Source: a virus. From it: a stretch of 64,000 nucleotides of DNA. This document shows, in pieces, positions 2,772 to 62,936 of this stretch (positions within the stretch are counted from its first letter, which is position 1; each line of letters begins with the position of its first letter). The notes beneath the pieces are model-generated. The model saw nothing but the letters and a program-made list of their open reading frames with translations, had not been told where the DNA came from and did not search any database. The translations under genes and the position numbers were made by a program. The stretch covers positions 1-64,000 of the IMG/VR virus record IMGVR_UViG_3300005613_000045; one strand, 5' to 3'.

Positions 2772-3002
2772 ATGGCAATGATTACGCTACGCAAATATGA
2801 AGATGCGTTGGAAGATGTTGTAAAAGCATTTGATCTTATGGAATATCAGCAAAGAAAAGCTTTTACACCTGCGTTGGATAATTTGTTTTGGGCTATTACT
2901 TCGGATCTGTATGAGTTGAAGCAACGTTTAGAAGAAGAGATTGAGGCAGAGGAAGAAGATAGTCGTGAAGCAGAACTAGAGGATTATGACTACGAAGACT
3001 AG
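2772..3002 (+). CDS. Hypothetical small acidic protein
   Basis: 76-aa ORF. Confidence 0.5.
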   Translation: MAMITLRKYEDALEDVVKAFDLMEYQQRKAFTPALDNLFWAITSDLYELKQRLEEEIEAEEEDSREAELEDYDYED

Positions 3003-3576
3003 ATTTTGGGTTTCGATACTTTGTAGTATGCTAGTACTGTCTTTGTCTGCAACAGGCTACGCATTTATTAAACTAAATGCAGCAAATACTGCAAAGTTAC
3101 CCAGCATTCAAGAACAAGAACGAGGTTTGGTTTTTACTAAAGAGAATCAGCTTGTGCGTATATTGACTCCAGGACGATACAAGTTGCAAGCTAAAGAAGA
3201 TTATGTCAAGATAATTTCAATCGCAGACAGGTTCATTACTTTCCAAGATGATACCATAAGAACTGCAGAAGATATTCTTTATACCGTACAAGTTGTGTTG
3301 GTATATCATCGAGAAGATACAGAAGAAAGCTTGTTTGGACTTTGGAGAAGATACCCTGTAGAATCCACACAAGATTTTTTATTGGATGAATTGGTAGAAG
3401 ATATGTTAGCTGTTGCTGTAAAGCTGTCAGCAACAACGCTGACAGCCGAAGAAACTTTTTCAGCGGAAGGAATAAAAACTTTGAGTAGGCGTATTGATGA
3501 ACGACTCACCCCTGTGTTGGCTGCTCGTGGTTGTGTGTTGGTAAAAATAGAAATTAAAAATTTGTTTCAGGAGTAA
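2986..3576 (+). CDS. Membrane-anchored protein with an N-terminal signal/TM segment; possibly SPFH/band-7-like
   Basis: Hydrophobic N-terminus (FWVSILCSMLVLSLSATGYA). The domain call is weak. Confidence 0.55.
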   Translation: MTTKTRFWVSILCSMLVLSLSATGYAFIKLNAANTAKLPSIQEQERGLVFTKENQLVRILTPGRYKLQAKEDYVKIISIADRFITFQDDTIRTAEDILYTVQVVLVYHREDTEESLFGLWRRYPVESTQDFLLDELVEDMLAVAVKLSATTLTAEETFSAEGIKTLSRRIDERLTPVLAARGCVLVKIEIKNLFQE

Positions 3577-6482: not shown

Positions 6483-6554
6483 GCTGGTATAACTTAATGG
6501 TAAAGTAACCACCTTGTAAGTGGTGGAGTGTAGGTTCAAGTCCTACTACCAGCT
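6483..6554 (+). tRNA. tRNA-Thr (anticodon UGU)
   Basis: Folded by hand: acceptor GCTGGTA/TACCAGC, D stem ACTT/AAGT, anticodon stem ACCAC/GTGGT with loop CTTGTAA, T arm GTAGG-TTCAAGT-CCTAC. No encoded CCA. Confidence 0.85.
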
Positions 6555-40846: not shown

Positions 40847-41101
40847 ATGGATTTCATTCCTAGTGTACGACCTGTTCCTGATCATATCGGTGACATTAGT
40901 TTTATCATTACTAATTATTTAGATAACACAGAAACTCCTGATAGTGTGCAATATGAAGTGCAAGTTTTGCAAGCAGATGGTTCAATCTATAATATAGAAC
41001 AAGGTGATTTAATTCCTTATCTAACACAAGAACAGATTGTAATGCTTGTACAATTTGCAGATTCTATGCGGACATTAGCACAAGGATTAATTCCAGAATA
41101 A
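40847..41101 (+). CDS. Hypothetical protein
   Basis: 84-aa ORF with a GGAGGA RBS. Confidence 0.5.
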   Translation: MDFIPSVRPVPDHIGDISFIITNYLDNTETPDSVQYEVQVLQADGSIYNIEQGDLIPYLTQEQIVMLVQFADSMRTLAQGLIPE

Positions 41102-41119
41102 TTTTAGGAGGGCCGACCA

Positions 41120-41341
41120 ATGGATAAAATTGAATTGACTGAAGCAGAAGCAAAAATTGTTTTTACTCTGTATGAAACTAGGCAACAGGTAGTGGCAGAA
41201 CAGGATAGTATAATCTCTGCTTTGATAAAATTACTAGCAAAAAATTATGGGTTTTCTGAAGACGTTAATCTAAGTATTACTCAAACAGAGAATGGTAAAC
41301 TAGTATTAGAAAGTAAAGCTGATAAACAAAATGAAAAATAA
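41120..41341 (+). CDS. Hypothetical protein
   Basis: 73-aa ORF preceded by the AATTTTAGGAGGGCC motif. Confidence 0.5.
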   Translation: MDKIELTEAEAKIVFTLYETRQQVVAEQDSIISALIKLLAKNYGFSEDVNLSITQTENGKLVLESKADKQNEK

Positions 41342-41366
41342 AATTCATAAAAGAGTTTAAAAATTA

Positions 41367-41642
41367 ATGGCTGAATCAGAACTTCTTTTAAAAGGTATAG
41401 AATCTGGAAGTCTTGTTTTTGTAATTGTTCTTATGTATCTTGCCCTTCGCTATCTGCTTACAAAACTAGATAGAATAGATGCACTAGAAGATGCTGTAAT
41501 AACTATTACAAACACTCTCACAGAAAGACTTTCAGAACTTAATACATCATTAGCTATACTCACAGAGCAGAGTAGACGCTGCGAACAAGAGACAAGGGAG
41601 TCTATCAGACGAGTAGAAATTGAAATGAGAGGGAAGAACTAA
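41367..41642 (+). CDS. Small single-pass membrane protein (holin/antiholin-like)
   Basis: TM segment LVFVIVLMYLALRYLL followed by a charged coiled region. Confidence 0.45.
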   Translation: MAESELLLKGIESGSLVFVIVLMYLALRYLLTKLDRIDALEDAVITITNTLTERLSELNTSLAILTEQSRRCEQETRESIRRVEIEMRGKN

Positions 41643-41833
41643 TGACGGCACTATTGATTATTTTTCGTGTCGTTTTTGTTGTAACATCCGTTATGGGTTC
41701 TTCTTTCGCCATCTACATTCTAGCTTCTCGATACACCAGTGATGACGGAGCACAACGACTAGAAGAAGAAGTCTCAAAATTTTTGGCTGCCTACAGAAGT
41801 ATCGAAGGAGGACAGCCTAATGACAGACAATAA
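41642..41833 (+). CDS. Small membrane protein (holin-like)
   Basis: 63 aa with LLIIFRVVFVVTSVMGSSFAIYILA. Confidence 0.45.
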   Translation: MTALLIIFRVVFVVTSVMGSSFAIYILASRYTSDDGAQRLEEEVSKFLAAYRSIEGGQPNDRQ

Positions 41834-42176
41834 AAATATGTATGATTTAATAAGTGCGCTTACATTCTGGTTATCTGTTCCGCTTATCGTAGCTAATCTT
41901 ATTCTTGCTTGGAGATTTATCCGAGTATTGAAACAAAGAAAAAATATAGCGTCTGCTTTAATGTTTTTAATGATTATGTCCTTAACTTTTTCTACACTAT
42001 ATAAAGCTGTTATAAGTGTAGACATTATAGTTATTGAAGGTGCTATTATATTCTTATATAAAGAATATGAACCATTAATAGCTCTTAGCATTCGCTATAT
42101 TATAACAATCTTTCTGTATACTTTAATGTCTTTACGTCCTAAGAGCATCAGCATTAGACGTAAAACTGATAGATAG
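41820..42176 (+). CDS. Small 3-TM membrane protein (holin-like)
   Basis: 118 aa with three hydrophobic helices; last gene of the rightward block. Confidence 0.5.
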   Translation: MTDNKNMYDLISALTFWLSVPLIVANLILAWRFIRVLKQRKNIASALMFLMIMSLTFSTLYKAVISVDIIVIEGAIIFLYKEYEPLIALSIRYIITIFLYTLMSLRPKSISIRRKTDR

Positions 42177-42178
42177 TT

Positions 42179-43828
42179 TTAAATTTTATAGAGGGCCATA
42201 AGTTTTTCTGTAATATTTTTCTTGTATCTAGACAATTCTTGTACAAGAGCTTCTTTAAGAATAGCATCTGAAATCATTTGTTTTCTAGCTATTACATCTT
42301 CTACAGCAGCATCAATGGACTCTTTACAAATCAAATTGTAAATAGTTACAGGATTCTTTTGACCTATTCTATGCAGTCGTCCTTCTGCTTGATGCTGCTC
42401 TCTAGGATTCCAATGATGCTCGATAAAAATTGCCACAGAAGCAGCTTGCAGATTTAATCCTGTGCCTCCTGCTCCTAGCGTACAAAGTAAAACTTTACTA
42501 TCTCCAGAATCTAAACTATCCTTTGCTTCTTCTCTATCCTCGGCTTCGACATCCCCTGTGATAATCCCACAAGAAATATTTTCTTTTTTCAATCTCTGTT
42601 CTAGTGCAGCAATAGTTCCTTTGTACAAAGAGAACACAACAATTTGCTGATCTGTACCTGTGATAATATCCATCGCAGCATCCAACTTACCAGAAGAATC
42701 ATCAAAACCGATTGTGTGCGGTGTGCTCAGAATCTGTCTTAGTCTGGTAATGATTGCGATTTCAGCAAAGGCTTGTACTTCTTCTCCTGTTTCCGCTTGC
42801 GCTATAGCATTCAAAGCCATATCTTTATAATACTTTGCTTGTTTGATTGTCATTTCAACTTCAATATTGATCACAGTTTTATCTGGAATATCTATACTTA
42901 CATCCTGCTTTGTTCGTCTAAGCATCACAGGTGCAAGTTCTCTGCGCAGATATTCTTCATTACGTGTGCCTATAATTTTTCGTGATCCAAAATAATCTTC
43001 GACATAATCCACATACATCTCGAAGAAACGCCAATAAGAAGTAAATTTTTTAGGGTAAAGAATATTTAATAGAGACCATAGATCAGCAGTATTGTTTCCA
43101 ATAGGTGTACCTGTGAGCATGACAACATTAGCTGCTGCAAGGTTTTTTGCTTTCGCTACTGTTTTTGTTTTACGATTAGACATCATATGAGCTTCATCAT
43201 AAATGATCCAATCCCACTGAATACGGGGAAGATCATATGTTCTAAGATTATGATAGTTAAGAATGAACCAACCTTCTCGATATTCTTGTAGTTGCTTCTT
43301 TGCTTTCTTAGGTTCTGATACAACCACAGGTAGAGAATATTTAGACCATGTAGCAATCTCTTTAGCCCACTGCCATTTAACAGAATTAGGACAAACGATA
43401 AGAATATTTTTATGTCGTGGAGAAATGTCCGTAGCTAAAATAGTCTCTACCGTCTTACCTAACCCCATTTCGTCACCGAGAATACAGCGTGAAACAGATT
43501 TAATATACTGAACACCTACTCTTTGATAAGGTCGAAGCATCTTTTCTTTGGGATGATTTATTTGTACTTGCTTTGAGATAGTTTCTGCTAGAGTTCTTTC
43601 TGATTCAATCTGTTCTTCATACCACTCTTTGCTAAAATCGTCTGGTGTAATACCCAATTTCTCTACCAGAATTTCGTATAGTCTAGGTTCTGCGGGCATT
43701 GAAACAATACCATCATCCTGTGACACACCAGGAACTTTACCTAGCAAAGCCATTGTTTCAATTCTTTTTTCGTTATGCACAAGCAGTCTAGGAGTATAAC
43801 GCCCACCAGGATTGTAGTACGTGATCAT
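42179..43828 (-). CDS. SNF2/Rad54-family helicase
   Basis: Motif I LGDEMGLGKT, DEAH box IIYDEAHMMSN, LTGTPIGNN, and helicase-C motif QAEGRLHRIGQ. Confidence 0.85.
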   Translation of the reverse strand: MITYYNPGGRYTPRLLVHNEKRIETMALLGKVPGVSQDDGIVSMPAEPRLYEILVEKLGITPDDFSKEWYEEQIESERTLAETISKQVQINHPKEKMLRPYQRVGVQYIKSVSRCILGDEMGLGKTVETILATDISPRHKNILIVCPNSVKWQWAKEIATWSKYSLPVVVSEPKKAKKQLQEYREGWFILNYHNLRTYDLPRIQWDWIIYDEAHMMSNRKTKTVAKAKNLAAANVVMLTGTPIGNNTADLWSLLNILYPKKFTSYWRFFEMYVDYVEDYFGSRKIIGTRNEEYLRRELAPVMLRRTKQDVSIDIPDKTVINIEVEMTIKQAKYYKDMALNAIAQAETGEEVQAFAEIAIITRLRQILSTPHTIGFDDSSGKLDAAMDIITGTDQQIVVFSLYKGTIAALEQRLKKENISCGIITGDVEAEDREEAKDSLDSGDSKVLLCTLGAGGTGLNLQAASVAIFIEHHWNPREQHQAEGRLHRIGQKNPVTIYNLICKESIDAAVEDVIARKQMISDAILKEALVQELSRYKKNITEKLMALYKI

Positions 43829-44412: not shown

Positions 44413-44496
44413 TGAGGTGGGAGGGATTTGAACCCTCATGGCGTTTCCGCCAGCGGCTTTTAAGGCCGCCATGTCTACCAATTCCATCACCACCCC
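44413..44496 (-). tRNA. tRNA-Leu (anticodon UAA), type II with a long variable arm
   Basis: Reverse complement folds as acceptor GGGGTGG/CCACCTC (one G-U pair), anticodon stem GCGGC/GCCGC with loop CTTAAAA, 15-nt variable arm, and T arm GAGGG-TTCAAAT-CCCTC. Confidence 0.85.
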
Positions 44497-44780: not shown

Positions 44781-47700
44781 TTAATCCTCTTCTACAATAA
44801 GAGAACCCCAACGATAACCACGTTCTGCTTCTACAGGAAAAGGAATCGTATCACCATAAAGTTCTGCCGCTGTGCCTTCCATACACTTGCTAAGTTCGTG
44901 TACTGCGTCCTCTGCATCTTCTTCAGGAACACAGGCTGTGATACTATCATGGACTGTCATGCGCACTGAGAGACCTAGTTTATCTAAGGCGATGATAGAC
45001 GCAAGTGTAGCATCACTAGCAGAGCTTTGGGGAATCATATTGATTGCCTGTCTGAAAATTTCTGATACTCGATAGCGATCATTCTTTACATAAACAAGCT
45101 CAGGAAATCTTCTCTTTCTACCAAGCAGAGATTCAACATACCCTTGTTCGAGTACAAGCTGCTTTACTTTCTCGTTATATTCTACCACCTTGGGCATTTT
45201 TGAAAAGAAAGCTGAAGCAATCTTGTGGACAATTTCAGGATCTACACCATGTGTACCGTCACGCTGTAGTTTATCCTCAGATGCTCCATAAAGCAAAGCA
45301 AAGTTAAAAGTTTTTGCAGAAGAGCGATTGGCTTTTGTATAGTCATCTCCCCAACCATCTCGTGCAGTTTCTCCGTGCAAGTCTCGTCCTTCTCGATAGC
45401 AATTAATCAGATAAGGATCTTGAGATAGTAGAGCAATTGTTCTATATTCGATTTGACTATTACAAGTAAATACACCGCAACTTAAAGCAAAATTATGTTG
45501 ATCATCTACAGTAATAGCTCGCATAGGTTGTAGACCCACAGGTTGAATATCTATAATTACATGATTTTTACCGCCCCTTCGTGCTGTGTCATAACATTCT
45601 CTAGAACAATATTTTTTAGTATTTCCTTTTGTAACATAACACTCTTTACCACAGATGGGACAAACTACGAAAGTTCCAGAACGTTTTCCGTAATTAGGAT
45701 TATTTTTTCCAACATACGAACGACGATTTTTAATTCCTTCTCTAAGATTGTTTAATCTTAATGTGTGATCTTGTTCAGCGTAATTTTGTTTACCGTGTTC
45801 AGACCAGTGTTTTTTAGCATTCACATATGTAAGATTATCTGGCAGATTATTTTGTCTATTTCCGTCTTTATGGTGTACATGCGTATTTTTATTACGTTTT
45901 CCAAACAAAGTTTCAGCTACAAGTATATGTTCTTTTATATAATCAGTTGCATGAGTAGTATATAAATGAACATAACCATTACGAGGATTAACGTACCTAT
46001 TAAAAGGAAGAAGACGATCTCCTATGGTCAGATTTTCTGTTGTTCGTTCTTCGATAGGATGATAGCGCCGACCTTTTCCTGTTTTTATTAACCACTTGTG
46101 ATCTTTAGAAGCAATAATAGATTCTCCATTATCTAACGTTATACGAAAACTCTCTAGCATTCCTACATTTACTTCTTTTGTTACCAAACCTGCGCACACT
46201 TTATGATCATCTACAGAATAAACACGCTCTCCAACATGAATATCTTTTAAAGGTTTGGCTCCTTCAAAAGTTTCTACAAGTGTTTCTGGATGAAGACAAA
46301 AATCGGCCTCTACAAAGACAGATCCTAAATCAGCAATAAACAAATTACGAATATCTGTTTTTGCCTCTTTATTCCTGCTAGGCTGGTTTTGTAGATTTGG
46401 CGTTGAGGATGACAGCCTTCCTGTGACTGTACCCGCAAGGTTAAAGCTTGTGTGTACTCTACCATCAGCAAGCATAGAGTTTTGTAGTCCTGTGACGTAT
46501 CGAGATGAGATAGTATAAGCTTCTCGATAATCCAGTAACATACGCACAAACTCGTGCTGATTTTCTAGCATAGATAGAACAGTCTTTGCATTTGTAGAAC
46601 GTCCATCTATCTCAGGCAAACCTAACTCATCAAAAAGAATATGCGATACTTGTTGTGGTGATCGTGGGTTAAATTCATGACCACAACATTGTTCCATTTG
46701 TTTATAAGCATCAAGAGCTTTTGATTCATACTTTGGAATAAGCGTTTGAAGAAGTTGCTGATCTAATAAAATACCCTTCGCTTCAGCATTAGAAAGCGCC
46801 AACACTCCAGGCATAAGAAGATTCTTATATATCCAAACCAACTTCTCTTGTGGTTTAAGCATCTTGTGCAGTTCCCACGTCATTACTCGCTGCCAATAAC
46901 CGTCATTTGCTGTATAAGTATGTAGCATTTGTGTAGGCATAGCAGAGTAATCAACATCTTTTCCTGTAAAAAACTCTTTCACAGGAGTATCCCAATCAGG
47001 AGCGCGAAACATAGCAGCACAAATTTCTTTAGCTCCATGCGTACCTTGTCGCTCATCAAGCAAGTAATGAGCAAGAAGCGTATCATACTTGAAATCAAGC
47101 GTAACACCCAATTGCAGACGAATAAAGTTGCGATCAAACTTTACGTTATGCCCAGACCAAGCTACTTGTGGACTTGCTTTTTTCAAAGCTTCTGCAAAAC
47201 CCTGTGAATAGATCACATGTTCTGGAATGAGATAAACTAACTCATCTTCACTTGGAGCCATTACAAGCAGAATAATTTTACCTGATACAGGATCAAGAGA
47301 ATTTGTTTCAATATCCAGAACACAGAAAGAATTTTGTTGTGCCTTACGCAATACCATATCATAATCTTCTGTGAGCACATACTTAACTTCTTCAGGATTC
47401 GGAGGACGCACATCAAAAATATCTGGATTCAGAATAGCATGTACATATTTTAGATCAGCCGTAATATCTGCAAGCAAACGATTGTTTTTCATAACAGCGC
47501 CTGGATGCACAGTAGGAATAACCTCTACTCGATAACTATCTCCATCTTTTACAGGGATGTCGATAGTTTTTCTGATGCCTCTGCGCTTAGTGATTCCAGG
47601 ACCCTTACCCAGCAGATTTTTTGTAGCCAGATTACCTAGCGTAAGCACAAGCTTTGGTTTAAGGGAAGCAATTTCATCCAGCAATCTGTCTTTACATAAT

Positions 47701-47999
47701 CCTGCTGCTTCTTCTTTTTGTTTTTCATCCTGACCAAAACACAAACAAGTATTGGTGAACCAATAGGAAGACAGATCTTCTAGGTGCAGAGTATCCCGCA
47801 GAATTTTAAAGCTATCAGCAGAGAATATTTTTCGATTGACAACCTCCTGTGTTGTTGGTCCTTCTCCAACGATCACAAGATCTGCGTGCTGCTGATTGTC
47901 TAGCTTACCCTGACCTCTAAGACCGATACGATTTTTAAAGGGACAATTTTCACAAGCTGCGAGAGGGTGTTTACGACTACTCATTTTGAATCTCTTCAA
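44781..47999 (-). CDS. Family A DNA polymerase with an N-terminal family-4 UDG-like domain, a 3'-5' exonuclease, and an intein in motif A
   Basis: UDG4-like: Cys cluster CENCP...CLC...C, GEGPT and HPGAV. Exonuclease I: VLDIETNSLD. Polymerase: NLQNQP; motif A split as VFVEADF|...|SQIEYRTIALLS; motif B RSSAKTFNFALLYG; motif C VHDSI. Confidence 0.9.
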   Translation of the reverse strand: MKRFKMSSRKHPLAACENCPFKNRIGLRGQGKLDNQQHADLVIVGEGPTTQEVVNRKIFSADSFKILRDTLHLEDLSSYWFTNTCLCFGQDEKQKEEAAGLCKDRLLDEIASLKPKLVLTLGNLATKNLLGKGPGITKRRGIRKTIDIPVKDGDSYRVEVIPTVHPGAVMKNNRLLADITADLKYVHAILNPDIFDVRPPNPEEVKYVLTEDYDMVLRKAQQNSFCVLDIETNSLDPVSGKIILLVMAPSEDELVYLIPEHVIYSQGFAEALKKASPQVAWSGHNVKFDRNFIRLQLGVTLDFKYDTLLAHYLLDERQGTHGAKEICAAMFRAPDWDTPVKEFFTGKDVDYSAMPTQMLHTYTANDGYWQRVMTWELHKMLKPQEKLVWIYKNLLMPGVLALSNAEAKGILLDQQLLQTLIPKYESKALDAYKQMEQCCGHEFNPRSPQQVSHILFDELGLPEIDGRSTNAKTVLSMLENQHEFVRMLLDYREAYTISSRYVTGLQNSMLADGRVHTSFNLAGTVTGRLSSSTPNLQNQPSRNKEAKTDIRNLFIADLGSVFVEADFCLHPETLVETFEGAKPLKDIHVGERVYSVDDHKVCAGLVTKEVNVGMLESFRITLDNGESIIASKDHKWLIKTGKGRRYHPIEERTTENLTIGDRLLPFNRYVNPRNGYVHLYTTHATDYIKEHILVAETLFGKRNKNTHVHHKDGNRQNNLPDNLTYVNAKKHWSEHGKQNYAEQDHTLRLNNLREGIKNRRSYVGKNNPNYGKRSGTFVVCPICGKECYVTKGNTKKYCSRECYDTARRGGKNHVIIDIQPVGLQPMRAITVDDQHNFALSCGVFTCNSQIEYRTIALLSQDPYLINCYREGRDLHGETARDGWGDDYTKANRSSAKTFNFALLYGASEDKLQRDGTHGVDPEIVHKIASAFFSKMPKVVEYNEKVKQLVLEQGYVESLLGRKRRFPELVYVKNDRYRVSEIFRQAINMIPQSSASDATLASIIALDKLGLSVRMTVHDSITACVPEEDAEDAVHELSKCMEGTAAELYGDTIPFPVEAERGYRWGSLIVEED
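45459..46298 (-). mobile_element. Intein (280 aa) with an HNH endonuclease domain, inserted in Pol A motif A
   Basis: Begins with Cys (CLHPETLV, block A-like) and has a block-B-like SKDHKWL. HNH motif is HVHHKDGNRQNN...H with a zinc ribbon CPICG...C..C. Ends ...VFTCN and is followed by Ser. The flanks reconstitute ADFSQIEYR, like ADYSQIELR. Confidence 0.75.
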
Positions 48000-48240: not shown

Positions 48241-50793
48241 CTAATATAAAGATTTCACAGTAGCTACTGGTGTATTTATTTCTGCTCCCTTGAGTGTGAT
48301 ACCATACTTTGATACAAGTGTTTCATTCGTTAAGAAGTTAGGCACATTCAGACCAGCTTTAAAAGCGTTCTGCAATCTGATACCATACATCTGTAACTTG
48401 TTTCCTGGAGCAGTCTCTAGCAGCGTTAGCGGTACAACATAATTACTGTTATCTCTACTCCTCTCTGATAACTGTGATTGCATTGCTTGAGATTCCAGCA
48501 TTCCTTTTCCTCTGATTCTCCTTTCTCTAGCCCACCATTGATGTGCTGTAGTAAAATGAATCCAAAGAACATTACTATCTTTGGAATAGAAACAAATAAA
48601 AGGTACCTTTGTATTCTGAACATTGGCCACATAAGAGACAACATCTTCTACGAAATCATCCACCATTGTCCTTGACATTCCTGTGGTCAAACGCATGACG
48701 ACGAGATCAACACACTCCGAGAAATCATCCATTGACCATTTGATAGGTGCTACTTCATAAGCTTTAAAATGATCATTCAAAATGCGCATACCACAGGCTG
48801 TTACTGTGATATTATTTCTTACACGATCAGGAAGAGTGGTTGTAAATTCCTTCTGGGTTTTTGCAAATTCTTCTCTATATATTTCTAGAATATCTTCAGG
48901 TGTATATCGTAGAGTGTGCTGAATAAAACGACCAGCGAAAGCAGCAATATCATATTCTACTAATTCTTTATAAGCTCTGTGATGTACAGAACCCTCTCGT
49001 ACATCTTCAGGATGTAGATTGATAATAATAGAACGCTGTTTCAACGCTGGATCTGATAGGGCATCTTCACCATCAACAATCACAGGTGCTTCCAAAAGAT
49101 AAGTTTCTGTAGACTGATCGGCGTGTCCTCGGCTATCCATTCCTGTGTCATAGAGCATACGCAAGAGACCATGAAGATCTGATTTTGCGTCAATGGTTGA
49201 TTCTCGATACTCGCCAAAAGTTACAGGGAGTGCGTTTGTCTGTGAGAGTAGCATACGCAGAACGAATTTCGTGGTGCTGGATGAGTTGGTGTGAGCATCT
49301 GTGATTCCTAACAAACGCATAAGAACGTTATTAATAATAGAAGTTTTGCCTGATCCAAGCGTTCCAAAAATATTCAGGATAGGAAAACGAATTTCAGCCA
49401 AATGAAAAAGCTGCTTGACAGTTGCGGCAGCAAACCATCCCAGCATAGGAATAATCGCAGTTCTTTTATTCGTTAATCCTAAAAGAGGACTCATTGCTTT
49501 GAGCAATGCTTTATAATCGTCATCATCAGGGAACGTATACACAGTAGAAGGTACTGTATCGACACCCTCTCTTCGCCTATTTTTTCTATCAGCATATAGA
49601 TAAGGAGATTCTGAAGCTTCATAAGTGCGTGTAGCATCTATTGTAATTGTTTTAGTTACCCAGAAATTTTTATGTCTACCAACTACATAGGTGCTAACAG
49701 CATCAGTTACTTCGTTCTCTCTACATTTATCCATAAGATAGAGGAGATACTGCTTTGTTTCAAACTCGGAGCCAAGCCATTGCCATTCCATTGCGGTCAT
49801 GTATTTCATAAAACCTGTGAGAGAGGAGAAAGCAGAACGTGGAAGAATAACTCCTTCCCAGGTTTTGTCTTCTGTTTTAATGGTGCCAAGAAAAGCATCC
49901 TCGGCAGAGTCTTGACTACGCAAAAGTTTCTCAGGGATATAATTAAAAGTAGCTACTTGATGCTTACCTTTAGCACCGTCGTAAAAAAGCATACCATTAA
50001 CTTCAGTAAACTTTTGTGAGCTTTCAGCGTAAGAATCTTTTGCTTTAGCTAGATCAATATTTAGTAGACGATAATTATCTTCTCTCCATCGAGCACCAAT
50101 AGGATTTTGATCTGCAATAAGTTTAATTGTTTTATCTGATACACCAGCAGCAATAAGATTTCTAAGAACAAACCAGTCTCGTTCGCTTCTGGTTTTGAAT
50201 CCTACATCACTACCTGTTTTGATTGTCTCTAAACACTGTGAAGATACTCTAACCAGCGCAAGCAAATCATCTGGATCGTATCGTTTAGTAGGATCAGAAA
50301 CTTTGATCTCAACTTTTCTAATATTCCTGGCATCTTTACAATTGTGTGTATCAGGAATGCGAAGAATACGTTCTGGATCATGCACAGCATCAGAACCGAT
50401 GATAGACATGATACCTTTACATATTTTTTGGGAGATCGCTCCATCAACAGAACGTTCTAGCAACCAATAAATATGTAGACCATGACCACTGTTTACAACA
50501 TATGAGGGACGAACAGGAAAAGATTCAACACGATCTAAAAGAGTTTCTTCTGTGACATCGAAATTATTTATCCCATCAATATCAGCATATACACAGGTTA
50601 GTCGTGTGTATGCGTCATAATAATTTCGTTTTCTAGGAGCAACTCCAAAATACAAATCATATTGAAGATTGTTTTGTGCATACTCTCTAACTTCTTTAGG
50701 AGAATCAAAGAGCAATCTTTTTACTGGAGAAGATTTCTGAAAAACATAAATCTGTTCGTCTGGATGAAGACTCTCAAAAATAACATCCAGCAT
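48241..50793 (-). CDS. Primase-polymerase (prim-pol) N-terminal domain fused to a P-loop SF3/D5-like helicase
   Basis: N-terminus: YFGVAPRKR..VYADIDG and SGHGLHIYW. C-terminus: Walker A GTLGSGKTS and Walker B VIVDGED. RBS GGAGGA. Confidence 0.7.
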   Translation of the reverse strand: MLDVIFESLHPDEQIYVFQKSSPVKRLLFDSPKEVREYAQNNLQYDLYFGVAPRKRNYYDAYTRLTCVYADIDGINNFDVTEETLLDRVESFPVRPSYVVNSGHGLHIYWLLERSVDGAISQKICKGIMSIIGSDAVHDPERILRIPDTHNCKDARNIRKVEIKVSDPTKRYDPDDLLALVRVSSQCLETIKTGSDVGFKTRSERDWFVLRNLIAAGVSDKTIKLIADQNPIGARWREDNYRLLNIDLAKAKDSYAESSQKFTEVNGMLFYDGAKGKHQVATFNYIPEKLLRSQDSAEDAFLGTIKTEDKTWEGVILPRSAFSSLTGFMKYMTAMEWQWLGSEFETKQYLLYLMDKCRENEVTDAVSTYVVGRHKNFWVTKTITIDATRTYEASESPYLYADRKNRRREGVDTVPSTVYTFPDDDDYKALLKAMSPLLGLTNKRTAIIPMLGWFAAATVKQLFHLAEIRFPILNIFGTLGSGKTSIINNVLMRLLGITDAHTNSSSTTKFVLRMLLSQTNALPVTFGEYRESTIDAKSDLHGLLRMLYDTGMDSRGHADQSTETYLLEAPVIVDGEDALSDPALKQRSIIINLHPEDVREGSVHHRAYKELVEYDIAAFAGRFIQHTLRYTPEDILEIYREEFAKTQKEFTTTLPDRVRNNITVTACGMRILNDHFKAYEVAPIKWSMDDFSECVDLVVMRLTTGMSRTMVDDFVEDVVSYVANVQNTKVPFICFYSKDSNVLWIHFTTAHQWWARERRIRGKGMLESQAMQSQLSERSRDNSNYVVPLTLLETAPGNKLQMYGIRLQNAFKAGLNVPNFLTNETLVSKYGITLKGAEINTPVATVKSLY

Positions 50794-54719: not shown

Positions 54720-55154
54720 TTAAATCTTTTGAAAATCTACTGCCTCGGAGTAATACCCATTCGATCCCCCATACCAGCGAATCGTAACTGCTCCCCAAAC
54801 AGTAGCCAGTTTATAAAATGTCCAAGTATAAGAATCAGAGGGATACTCTGGATGAGATGTTCCTTCAGGTGTTTCATCTTGATAAGAAATTTCTTCTGCT
54901 AATAGGATAGGTCCATGCCCAACAAGGTCATTAAGATCACCACAAATATCTTCGATATAAACATATTCGCAACACTCCTGAGTATGCCATAGTTTATATT
55001 GATCACCATTATCAACAGTAAAAATTATTTGTTCGTCATCATTAATAACTTCGACAGCAGTTAAAGTTTGTCCTTCTAGAATCTCGAATGAGTCCATTGT
55101 ATTTCTCCTCTCGAATAGTACAACTATTCTAGCATACATTTGTGATCGTGTCAA
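54720..55154 (-). CDS. Hypothetical protein
   Basis: 144-aa ORF. Confidence 0.5.
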   Translation of the reverse strand: MTRSQMYARIVVLFERRNTMDSFEILEGQTLTAVEVINDDEQIIFTVDNGDQYKLWHTQECCEYVYIEDICGDLNDLVGHGPILLAEEISYQDETPEGTSHPEYPSDSYTWTFYKLATVWGAVTIRWYGGSNGYYSEAVDFQKI

Positions 55155-58967: not shown

Positions 58968-59744
58968 TTATTTCATCCTTTCCATATCACTTAAAAGTTG
59001 TGCGATCATAGAATCACTAGACTGATCCAATTTATTATACTCTACATAGGCTTGACCAAGTATAGGAAAAGCCAGCATAAACATTCCCAAACCTGCTACA
59101 GCATACGCTCTATGTTCTACCTGTGCATGTTTATCAAGACGTTTGTTCAACCAATTCATAAAGCTCCAAGCATTTACAGTCCAGATAAATTCTGTATACA
59201 TACTCACAGGAAGCATACCGCGAATTTCTTCCCTCCTCCATCTGTGTGATGCAAGCATGTGTTCGTATCTATCAATACTCATCTCTGTTTGAAGAATATA
59301 CTCTGCGTGTTCATGGGTTACTCGTTCATCTAGAGGATTCTGGTCGCTATCTACAACACTATAATCTCCTCGCCTGTGGAAACTTTTAATATATTCATCA
59401 ACACCAGGATTCCAGCGAGGAACATAGTAGCTACGTTCTGCGACTGTGTAGCGCAAACTTTTTTCGCAAAAAGTTCCTATCCTATGTCGCATCCACTGAC
59501 GTGCTACAAAAATTGGTAGCTTAACTTTCCAGCGCATAACAATATGTTCTAGTGGTGTGTTATGCCCAAGCTCTAAAAGTTTTTTAAGGAGCTTGATGTC
59601 TTGATTATCTCCTGTAACTTCTGTACCTGTACAAATTCTAGCTGCTTCTATAGCTACCATCTCTGAAAAATTTCCTTCCAGAGACATATAACCAGTGTGA
59701 TCGAGCACTTGTGCATACCGATCTTCAAGAAAATAAATGTGCAT
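58968..59744 (-). CDS. thyX: Flavin-dependent thymidylate synthase ThyX
   Basis: RHRx7S signature (WMRHRIGTFCEKS); overall ThyX-like sequence, 258 aa. Confidence 0.9.
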   Translation of the reverse strand: MHIYFLEDRYAQVLDHTGYMSLEGNFSEMVAIEAARICTGTEVTGDNQDIKLLKKLLELGHNTPLEHIVMRWKVKLPIFVARQWMRHRIGTFCEKSLRYTVAERSYYVPRWNPGVDEYIKSFHRRGDYSVVDSDQNPLDERVTHEHAEYILQTEMSIDRYEHMLASHRWRREEIRGMLPVSMYTEFIWTVNAWSFMNWLNKRLDKHAQVEHRAYAVAGLGMFMLAFPILGQAYVEYNKLDQSSDSMIAQLLSDMERMK

Positions 59745-60496: not shown

Positions 60497-61312
60497 TTAT
60501 ACCAACAAGCGACGTTCAAGATATTTCACCAACATCTTTACAACTTCTTTTGTAGTACTTTCTTTAAACATCATACCTTTCTCTTTATAATGATTAGGAA
60601 CATTAACATCTTCTGGGTTCGAGCACAGCATCATCATAGCAAGAATATCATCGTGAATAAGTATACCCATTGCATGTTCTTTCATAGCATTTGTTAGTAG
60701 ACTGGGTACATAATATTTTTCTTCGATGTGAGAGAGCAAATGATTATCTGCCGTAGTATCTCCTAGCGATTCTCCTTCTTGAGTATACATACTACAGAGC
60801 CAACAATCACCACCATCTGGAAGAGGAATTTTTTGATTTGCCAATTGCTTGGCAAACGCTTTAGCATACTTGCGAATATCTTTTTTCAATTGTGTTTGAT
60901 AATTAAACTTTTCAATACTCATACCCCCTGTGACTGTACCATCTGCATGAATTGTAAGACCATTTTCAAATACTGCTTTTCGATCTTCTTTATCCCAGCC
61001 TGTGCCAAGAAACCACATACCTTTATCAGCTACCAACCGATAAGGTTTAGGAAGAAACATATTCATACGACCTTTGGTCAGTGGAGTATGCCAACCACCA
61101 GAGTCAAGAATAATATCTCCATTATCCTTGAGCGTTACAATATCTGTGGTGTGCAAACGAATAACAATCGTGTGCTCATCCTCACGAATAACTCTGGTGT
61201 TATTCATAAAAGGTCGGTCTGTTTTATCCCTTCCTTTCAACAAATATTCTGCTGCACACTCGTAACCATAATCAGCGTTCCGGCCCTGTGTAAAATATCC
61301 ATTAGATGTCAT
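60497..61312 (-). CDS. Hypothetical protein
   Basis: 271-aa ORF. Confidence 0.55.
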   Translation of the reverse strand: MTSNGYFTQGRNADYGYECAAEYLLKGRDKTDRPFMNNTRVIREDEHTIVIRLHTTDIVTLKDNGDIILDSGGWHTPLTKGRMNMFLPKPYRLVADKGMWFLGTGWDKEDRKAVFENGLTIHADGTVTGGMSIEKFNYQTQLKKDIRKYAKAFAKQLANQKIPLPDGGDCWLCSMYTQEGESLGDTTADNHLLSHIEEKYYVPSLLTNAMKEHAMGILIHDDILAMMMLCSNPEDVNVPNHYKEKGMMFKESTTKEVVKMLVKYLERRLLV

Positions 61313-62564: not shown

Positions 62565-62936
62565 TTATTCTTTCCCCTCATTATAAAACTTGATTACTCT
62601 TTCTTGAATATTAGGATCAAGAGCAGTAAACATTTTTGCAAAATGTTCAGCACACATAATCGCTGCATCACGAGTAAGACAAAGATGTGTCAGTACAGTA
62701 TCCACATAACCATTCACATAAGAAATTCTAATCTTATAAATATAATTCTCCTGATTAAATATACTTTTTTCCTGAGTAACGAAGATCCAATAAGCCCAAC
62801 CTGTGTAAGGTTGTTCAATAAGCGTTGTCTCAAAATATTCCATCGTATCTTTACTAAAGAAATATCTACCTGCGTTTTTATTTGCTTTCTTTAATTTCTT
62901 GCATGAGTAATCTTTTCTTGGTTTAAGAAGATACAT
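62565..62936 (-). CDS. Hypothetical protein
   Basis: 123-aa ORF. Confidence 0.5.
   Translation of the reverse strand: MYLLKPRKDYSCKKLKKANKNAGRYFFSKDTMEYFETTLIEQPYTGWAYWIFVTQEKSIFNQENYIYKIRISYVNGYVDTVLTHLCLTRDAAIMCAEHFAKMFTALDPNIQERVIKFYNEGKE

Follow-up and report, generated by a model that had tools for sequence, protein, structure and literature searches.

Which enzyme is made from the long open reading frame (ORF) at 44781..47999 on the minus strand of IMG/VR virus record IMGVR_UViG_3300005613_000045, and does the uracil-DNA glycosylase (UDG) domain at its N terminus still act on uracil? We analyzed positions 1–64,000 of that record (64,000 nucleotides (nt), hereafter the window), from a virus whose complete genome probably has a length of at least 70 kb. 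In the ORF list the frame is single and uninterrupted and encodes 1072 amino acids (aa). The first-pass annotation had read it as a family A DNA polymerase (PolA) preceded by a family-4 UDG-like domain and a DnaQ-like exonuclease, pointing to a cluster of 4 cysteines and to the motifs GEGPT, HPGAV, and VLDIETNS, all of which we found in the protein. We identify the gene as a UDG-PolA with the architecture of the phage SPO1 enzyme, that is, as a protein already known in kind. The explanation that we consider likely to be right as a whole is that the protein is a family A DNA polymerase with proofreading, the replicative enzyme of an uncultured tailed phage, and that it is made as an inactive precursor split in polymerase motif A by a class-1 HNH intein. 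No new biological principle follows from this, and the main value of the analysis is a corrected annotation.

Three fused domains and an insert in motif A

The protein's N-terminal domain (aa ~10–190; 47430..47972, on the minus strand like all features of this gene) is a family-4 UDG. Pfam UDG (PF03167) matched residues 37–180 with an E-value of 1e-13 and 52 bits, passing the cut-off of 24.3. A single-sequence search of the PDB returned the UDGs of S. tokodaii (4zbx, 5e-7), T. thermophilus (1ui0, 1.6e-6), and T. maritima (1l9g, 2.5e-5), a weaker match to UdgX, and a 1142-aa chain, 9qhs_A. With a profile built from the N-domains of 20 members of the clade to which the protein belongs (A2), the solved family-4 structures were found with E-values of 1e-40 to 1e-37, UdgX with ~1e-27, 9qhs with 5e-22, and the family-5 UDGb with just 3.5e-4. 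An AlphaFold model of residues 1–205 had a pLDDT of 90.4, and Foldseek placed 4zby, 4zbx, 1ui0, UdgX, and 1l9g at the top of its PDB matches (E-values of 2e-12 to 1e-10, TM-scores of 0.62–0.72), again together with 9qhs_A, deposited as "phiLo family-A DNA polymerase with modified template". When the full-length model was used, Foldseek returned the Klenow, Taq, and Bst polymerases alone, and the N-domain was seen after separate modelling. Pfam, PDB matches, clade profile, and fold agree that the first ~200 residues are family-4 UDG-like, as initially annotated. In place of the contrary outcome named at that stage, a non-UDG fold or the replacement of all catalytic residues, we found a UDG fold with its catalytic residues kept. 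Covalent chemistry of the UdgX type was considered and rejected, because TIGR03914 scored 34 bits against a cut-off of 190 and because the protein has GEGPT as motif A and no KRRIH-like R-loop between C87 and C102, the hallmarks of UdgX being motif A GEQPG and an R-loop KRRIH with His109.

The 4 cysteines of the domain, C16 (47952-47954), C19 (47943-47945), C87 (47739-47741), and C102 (47694-47696), are accompanied by an extra one, C85. The 4 align with the cysteines of the T. maritima UDG TM0511 (1l9g), are invariant in 20 clade members, and are present also in phiLo and Shanette; we infer that they bind an Fe-S cluster. In the phiLo UDG (L005:18900-19617, minus strand), C23, C26, C94, and C113 are arranged as in Fe-S family-4 UDGs, and the text of the preprint on that enzyme (bioRxiv 10.1101/2025.03.26.645540) mentions neither iron, nor Fe-S, nor cysteines.

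The UDG domain is followed in frame by a 3'-5' proofreading exonuclease (aa ~205–380; 46860..47387), which matched Pfam DNA_pol_A_exo1 over residues 218–368 (E-value 1e-7) and carries the Exo I residues D229 and E231 within VLDIETNS, the Exo II residues N285, F288, and D289, and the Exo III residues Y362 and D366. The polymerase itself matched Pfam DNA_pol_A with an E-value of 2e-77, in 2 stretches that run up to residue 567 and again from 848 (to 1065). The first of them, comprising thumb and palm (46299..46859), ends within motif A at VEAD566-F567. The second (aa 848–1072 and the stop codon; 44781..45458) begins with the rest of motif A (SQIE851YR) and continues with motif B (R892, K896, F900, YG) and motif C (H1017, D1018). 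The protein ends approximately 7 residues past the conserved C-terminal GYRWGSL of the polymerase domain, leaving no C-terminal extension. In an alignment of the window protein with 20 relatives (A1, 21 sequences), the motif residues of both domains are invariant or nearly so; the exonuclease model had a pLDDT above 90, and exonuclease and polymerase together were Klenow-like (TM-scores of 0.84–0.87). NCBIfam and PHROG agree with Pfam, and PHROG 17 ("DNA polymerase") spans residues 34–567, so that the UDG-exonuclease-polymerase layout is already contained in a phage protein family. The in-frame fusion to an exonuclease and a Pol I polymerase was therefore correctly recognized in the first-pass annotation from the letters alone; its contiguous polymerase was not, because 280 aa split motif A.

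This insert (aa 568–847; 45459..46298) interrupts the protein at VEAD566-F567/C568LHPETL...GVFTC846-N847/S848-QIE851-YR, where slashes mark the junctions. It contains the blocks expected for protein splicing: Cys1 (in CLHPETL), block B S-K-D-H634, block F HNFAL, the terminal N847, and Ser848 at position +1. Its excision restores DF-SQIEYR, and the closest relative of the protein, the metagenomic P0001, which lacks the insert and is 62% identical in its extein, reads GDY-SQIEYR at this place (uninterrupted sequence of this type: ...GAYTAYTCNCARATHGA...). The solved gp41-1 and DnaE inteins resemble both splicing lobes (gp41-1 E-value 1.5e-4 with phmmer). Between the lobes lies an HNH homing-endonuclease core (aa 691–731, HHKDGNRQNNLPDNL...H; 45807..45929), which matched Pfam HNH_3 (PF13392) with 31.3 bits, over the cut-off of 24.8, as well as PHROG HNH families and, weakly, I-HmuI (1u3e). 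A zinc-ribbon-like motif, CPIC...CSREC (intein C213, C216, C231, and C235; 45594..45662), is 84–89% conserved in an alignment of 45 family members and may bind a metal. The window copy keeps every residue conserved in that alignment: Cys1, Thr6, His67, H142, H143, N151, N155, H164, the zinc-ribbon cysteines, H268-N269, Asn280, and the +1 Ser. The insert also differs in composition, with a GC content of 33.8% and a third-position GC content (GC3) of 15% vs 28–29% in the exteins; just 2.6% of 840-nt windows are so GC-poor. Judged by its sequence, the insert is a class-1 intein with an HNH endonuclease, which had been missed in the initial annotation.

In the Klenow enzyme, the motif-A residues D705 and E710 must share one continuous strand-turn. 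Their counterparts here, D566 and E851, are parted by the intein, so that the precursor cannot polymerize; and since the ORF is read straight through the intein, 44781..47999 describes the precursor and not the enzyme. The intein would excise itself by attack of Cys1, transesterification to Ser+1, and cyclization of Asn280, and the mature enzyme should then have 792 aa with an intact motif A.

A family of inteins at motif A of PolA

To place the intein, 1.84 billion protein representatives were searched exhaustively, which yielded 2405 relatives, with 67 clusters (at 50% identity) at E-values of 1e-30 or lower. The insertion site D[YF..]/C...N/[SC]Q[IL]E[LM]R was the same in 44 of the 45 full-length matches checked, in PolAs of very different length; the odd one out, P0124, is a close relative (35% identity) inserted at ...SSTDPN/C...HN/TQN. 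Among the best 150 representatives, 73 are recognizably PolA and 27 have a UDG domain. The nearest inteins (47–49% identity) reside in exteins that are just 24–29% identical, whereas the nearest extein (P0001) is intein-free. Within the clade, an intein of any kind was present in 5 of the 20 members (the window protein and P0001–P0019), and the motif-A intein in the window protein and P0004 only. In P0007, P0016, and P0018, an intein 24% identical to that of the window sits at TGRL/C...HN/SS in the motif TGRLSS.PNLQN (A1 columns ~640–916). With inteins at motif A, at the TGRL site, and at the P0124 site, PolA has at least 3 intein insertion points.

This distribution, together with the GC-poor composition of the window copy, suggests that the motif-A HNH inteins form a mobile family that homes into PolA. 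The HNH endonuclease would cut intein-free polA alleles at the conserved motif A during co-infection, and the intein would then be copied in. No second copy of the intein was found elsewhere in the 64-kb window. None of the PolAs among 50,697 deposited phage records has a detectable relative of it; the family is abundant in metagenomic PolAs yet undetected in deposited phage genomes. In SPO1, the interruption of the polymerase gene is a group I intron and not an intein. Looked up in a word index, the intein gave just 4 free-standing NUMOD4/HNH_3 endonucleases, and the relatives described above came from the exhaustive search. A tblastn match in Bacillus phage SP-15 was rejected as a polymerase intein because it sits in SP15_022 and not in the SP-15 polymerase. 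This 539-aa "hypothetical protein" (L007:3674-5293) is 29% identical to the first 170 residues of the window intein (E-value 3e-8); it may be a Hint-domain protein or an intein that annotation has missed, in a non-polymerase gene.

Phage HNH inteins are documented in general terms, and so is the presence of inteins in Pol I. The literature that we found says broadly that inteins can occur in bacterial Pol I, and we found no description of this motif-A allele of PolA. Known phage HNH inteins, for example the one in the dCTP deaminase of cyanophage CL131, likewise have an in-frame HNH_3 endonuclease within a Hint splicing domain and lie beside the catalytic residues of an enzyme of DNA metabolism. 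The family described here differs from such phage HNH inteins in targeting motif A of PolA, in being represented by metagenomic proteins only, and in its penultimate residue, which is not His. It is a ready source of compact inteins that would join their exteins at a ...D[YF]/SQ... junction, and it calls for caution in PolA-based virioplankton surveys and annotation pipelines, in which such genes would be mis-sized or split.

The UDG domain among known UDG-PolA enzymes

UDG-PolA fusions have been known since phage SPO1, were classified in 2023, and had their structures described in 2025. In the classification of Czernecki et al. 2023 (PMC10201439), the SPO1, SP-10, and SP-15 enzymes keep the UDG's catalytic residues, whereas in the N4-like PolAs (cluster 17) these have been lost, along with a helix and a His-bearing beta-hairpin. 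Missoury et al. 2025 (bioRxiv 10.1101/2025.03.26.645540) solved the enzymes of Yersinia phage YerA41 and Thermus phage phiLo by cryo-EM (phiLo PDB 9qhs) and showed that, 5 nt ahead of the polymerase site, the UDG removes dU present in the 5' template strand, that the abasic site is then bypassed, and that phage PolX, as apurinic/apyrimidinic (AP) endonuclease, and a ligase finish the repair. The C-terminal domain (CTD) of these SP15-like enzymes is implicated in abasic-site bypass, with PolX as the partner (bioRxiv 10.1101/2025.03.26.645540). The coupling of uracil excision to replication that had been suggested for the window protein has thus been shown experimentally in the homologous phiLo and YerA41 fusions, and no other mechanism has been demonstrated by experiment for fusions of this kind.

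The SPO1-type enzymes (of the Bacillus phages SPO1, SP-10, Shanette, and CP-51) have the same order of family-4 UDG, 3'-5' exonuclease, and PolA as the window protein. Like it, they have no CTD, and they are similar in size (944 aa in Shanette vs 792 aa here after splicing); they also share the E, P, and H residues and the 4 cysteines of the UDG. However, the Herelleviridae enzymes of this type are just 24–27% identical to the window protein, so that its membership is one of architecture and not of a close clade. Herelleviridae polymerases were also the best tblastn matches among deposited phages (25–29% identity), and megablast of the gene against the 50,697 phage records gave no match. SPO1-type phages replace thymine with 5-hydroxymethyluracil (5hmU), whereas the window phage encodes the thymidylate synthase ThyX.

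The SP15-like phiLo enzyme (phiLo_158, not phiLo_82) has a homologous UDG domain (27% identity, E-value 7e-11; Foldseek E-value 4e-10) with the same catalytic residues and 4 cysteines, and phiLo encodes ThyX as well. It differs in having Insert 1 in the exonuclease, Insert 2 in the thumb, and a CTD of ~80 aa, all of them absent here (1175 vs 792 aa, with motif A at ~870 vs ~566), and in having no intein. The absence of the CTD and the inserts ruled out the SP15-like subfamily. The N4-like PolAs likewise combine an N-terminal family-4 UDG-like domain with exonuclease and PolA in a phage replicase, but an inactivated domain of that type was ruled out because E46, N83, H165, F59, and the Fe-S cysteines are kept. 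With the stand-alone UDGs (1UI0, 4ZBX, 1L9G) the domain shares the fold, the 4-Cys signature, GE[GA]P, HP, the pocket residues, and the stacking Phe. It differs from them in being fused to a polymerase, in a motif A that ends in Thr and not Gly, in the changes of PFVGxAG to IFSADSF, of the KCRPP motif-3 triplet to LCFGQ, and of N89 to D91, and in falling under the TIGR00758 cut-off.

The true relatives of the protein are approximately 30 metagenomic proteins with the same 3 Pfam domains. The closest, P0001, comes from a contig of 73 kb whose genes follow the order of the window: PD-(D/E)XK nuclease, AAA_24, an 855-aa primase-helicase, UDG-PolA, and SNF2 helicase. These proteins form a separate, uncultured clade with genomes of ~70 kb and siphovirus-like modules. 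On the P0001 contig, a TROVE-domain (Ro60-like) protein (L001:13770-15245) lies between UDG-PolA and the SNF2 helicase, where the window has a tRNA gene and small ORFs. A scan of genome contigs found nothing nearer than 34% identity, mostly cellular Pol I, and we therefore assign no host. The UDG-polymerase fusion thus reaches a clade of uncultured mid-sized phages with ordinary thymidylate synthesis, without a CTD, and with no PolX or ligase recognized in the scanned regions of the window, which draws attention to the way in which this minimal SPO1-type architecture deals with abasic sites.

Alignment to solved UDGs showed that all 6 residues of the uracil pocket of the T. thermophilus enzyme (Tth UDGa), E41, G42, E47, F54, N80, and H155, the last being the key catalytic residue (Xia et al., PMC5387724), are kept in the window protein as E46, G47, E52, F59, N83, and H165. 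The catalytic residues E53, P55, and H178 of phiLo correspond to E46, P48, and H165; in the alignment proposed as a check in the first-pass annotation, these residues are conserved. In motif A (G45-E46-G47-P48-T49; 47853-47867), EG and the Pro are kept, while the final position is Thr, vs Gly in 18 of 19 clade members. In motif B (HPGAVMK, with HPGAV as residues 165–169; 47487-47507), H165 and P166 are invariant and the change of Arg to Lys is conservative, Arg being absent also in the S. tokodaii UDG. The water-positioning N89 of Tth UDGa is D91 here.

By sequence alone, then, the catalytic core of the UDG is intact and its surroundings have drifted, and we consider it rather likely that the domain still excises uracil. 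It would most likely act as in phiLo and YerA41: the template would be threaded as a single strand 5' of the polymerase site, and dU that stems from dUTP misincorporation or cytosine deamination would be flipped out and excised. H165 would stabilize the leaving group, and E46, G47, E52, F59, and N83 would form the pocket. The polymerase may be stalled by the resulting abasic site, with base excision repair of the host being recruited to it; stalling with proofreading is also plausible.

Several observations weigh against a working UDG or a working intein, and they bear on 3 other explanations. The main rival, which we regard as unlikely though worth serious attention, is that the UDG domain has lost or is losing its catalytic activity and has only a role in structure, DNA binding, or processivity, as has been proposed for the N4-like PolAs, with the Fe-S fold kept for stability. 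The NCBIfam model TIGR00758 scored 54.4 bits, under its curated cut-off of 125.3. When each sequence was scored at columns at least 90% conserved among the other sequences, the UDG domain of the window protein was off consensus at 7 of 32 positions (G49T, G61A, P62D, G64F, A167G, L170M, and R171K). For its exonuclease the count was 2 of 22 and for its polymerase 1 of 65, both of them ordinary (Fisher p = 0.004), and 15 close clade members pooled were off at 10 of 441 UDG positions (p = 4e-5 vs the window protein). All 7 changes fall where motif A ends, in the turn PFVGxAG (FVGPSG) that follows the stacking Phe, or in motif B, and G64F and P62D are non-conservative; relaxed constraint on the UDG could be their cause. 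These deviations near the active site make UDG activity uncertain. The DNA-contact residues N177, F181, and R185 of phiLo are also not conserved here, and the experimental work was done on SP15-like enzymes, which have a CTD and a PolX partner; the CTD is absent here, and no PolX was recognized in the regions scanned. Partner genes were sought with Pfam, PHROGs, and NCBIfam in the replication arm (41–64 kb) and the first 8.4 kb, the structural block at ~8.5–41 kb lying outside these scans. None of the scanned ORFs, many of which matched nothing, was recognized as a dUTPase, a dCMP/dCTP deaminase, a PolX, a ligase, or an AP endonuclease, and the N4-like PolAs provide a precedent for a lost UDG (PMC10201439). 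However, the N4-like enzymes lost their pocket residues together with a helix and a beta-hairpin, whereas the 6 pocket residues including the catalytic His are intact here, and the changes in motif B (A167G, L170M, and R171K) are conservative, with the S. tokodaii UDG also lacking the Arg. Moreover, the window is just 64 kb of a probably larger genome, and base excision repair can be supplied by the host.

The same substitutions, which adjoin the pocket, would fit an active UDG of shifted specificity, directed for instance at 5hmU or at another modified or damaged pyrimidine, in a phage with a non-canonical thymine replacement as in SPO1, SP-15, and YerA41. Several UDG-PolA phages have T-modified DNA, and several neighboring ORFs have no recognizable function. 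We nevertheless regard this explanation as very improbable. The window encodes a bona fide ThyX, an FAD-dependent thymidylate synthase (58968..59744, minus strand; Pfam Thy1 E-value 2e-39; NCBIfam thyX equivalog 132.5 bits vs a cut-off of 87.9), which makes dTMP and argues for ordinary thymine DNA. The scanned regions contained no detectable thymine-hypermodification genes and no dUMP hydroxymethylase, dCTP/dCMP deaminase, dUTPase, 5-hmU DNA kinase, or aGPT-Pplase. No change is seen in N83 and F59, which read the uracil face, or in E52, the residue that makes the pocket of Tth UDGa a tight one, and phiLo, with an active uracil-specific domain, carries ThyX too. For the first-pass proposal that thyX and the polymerase together keep tight control of dU/dT, this means that the ThyX is genuine, while its link to the UDG is one of co-occurrence only, the idea itself being reasonable. 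Least probable of all appears the explanation that the 280-aa insert is not a working intein but a decayed remnant, with a non-functional polymerase gene, or a permanent HNH domain insertion. Pfam Intein_splicing (18.9 vs 35.8 bits), Hint (14 vs 29.7), and NCBIfam intein_Nterm (19.2 vs 24.5) all remained under their curated cut-offs, the canonical penultimate His is replaced by Cys846, and the structural model of the insert was of low confidence (pLDDT 45–65). Yet the penultimate position is variable across the whole intein family (C, Y, L, M, S, K, F, N, H, T, A, or R), all residues conserved in the 45 family members, from Cys1 through the His of block B and the HN of block F to the terminal Asn and the +1 Ser, are present, and the insert is similar to solved, splicing-competent inteins. 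In addition, the frame is open in what is the sole DNA polymerase recognized in the replication module, and a permanent insert between D566 and E851 would part the catalytic carboxylates (D705 and E710 of Klenow, as established for Pol I). A further, improbable variant is that the surroundings of the UDG have been remodelled, giving an altered substrate range or a uracil/abasic-site sensor that stalls the polymerase, or that the intein is a conditional switch, set for instance by the redox state of Cys1 and Cys846. The change of 7 clade-invariant positions with the catalytic residues kept would fit a remodelled UDG, and redox control through these 2 cysteines, which flank the scissile bonds, would gate the timing of polymerase activity during infection.

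Gene start and genomic context

The TTG start listed for the ORF, at 47999, is probably wrong. The ATG at 47984 (M6) overlaps the stop codon of an upstream 83-aa ORF (ATGAGTAG; region 47977-47999) and is preceded, 7 nt upstream, by the Shine-Dalgarno-like hexamer GAAGAG, both of which favor it over TTG as the real start. The precursor would then have 1067 aa, and the overlap suggests that its translation is coupled to that of the 83-aa ORF.

The gene lies in a leftward-transcribed replication module together with those for the SNF2 helicase, a primase-helicase, DUF669, AAA_24, the PD-(D/E)XK nuclease, and ThyX. At ~41000–42200, a change in the sign of the GC skew coincides with a switch of the coding strand, where the rightward structural module (1–41 kb) meets the leftward replication module (42–64 kb). 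The ORF adjoining the polymerase gene (48241-50793, minus strand; 850 aa) has no Pfam match and weak PHROG matches to primase in its N-terminal part and to primase or primase/polymerase in its C-terminal part; it is presumably a divergent primase-helicase, matched by the 855-aa protein on the P0001 contig.

Directly downstream of the polymerase gene lies a tRNA-Leu(TAA) gene (44413-44496, minus strand), and a tRNA-Thr(TGT) gene was found at 6483-6554 (plus strand); UUA would be a favored codon in this AT-rich genome, with a third-position GC of ~28%. Three ORFs on the minus strand match domains of unknown function that were defined only recently, DUF7448 (54720-55154), Kyano_Gp96 (60497-61312), named for the Kyanoviridae cyanophages, and DUF7447 (62565-62936); they possibly hint at an aquatic or cyanophage-related gene pool. 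Among the small ORFs of the early region, an SPFH/Band 7 domain protein is encoded at 2986-3576 on the plus strand (Pfam E-value 2e-7).

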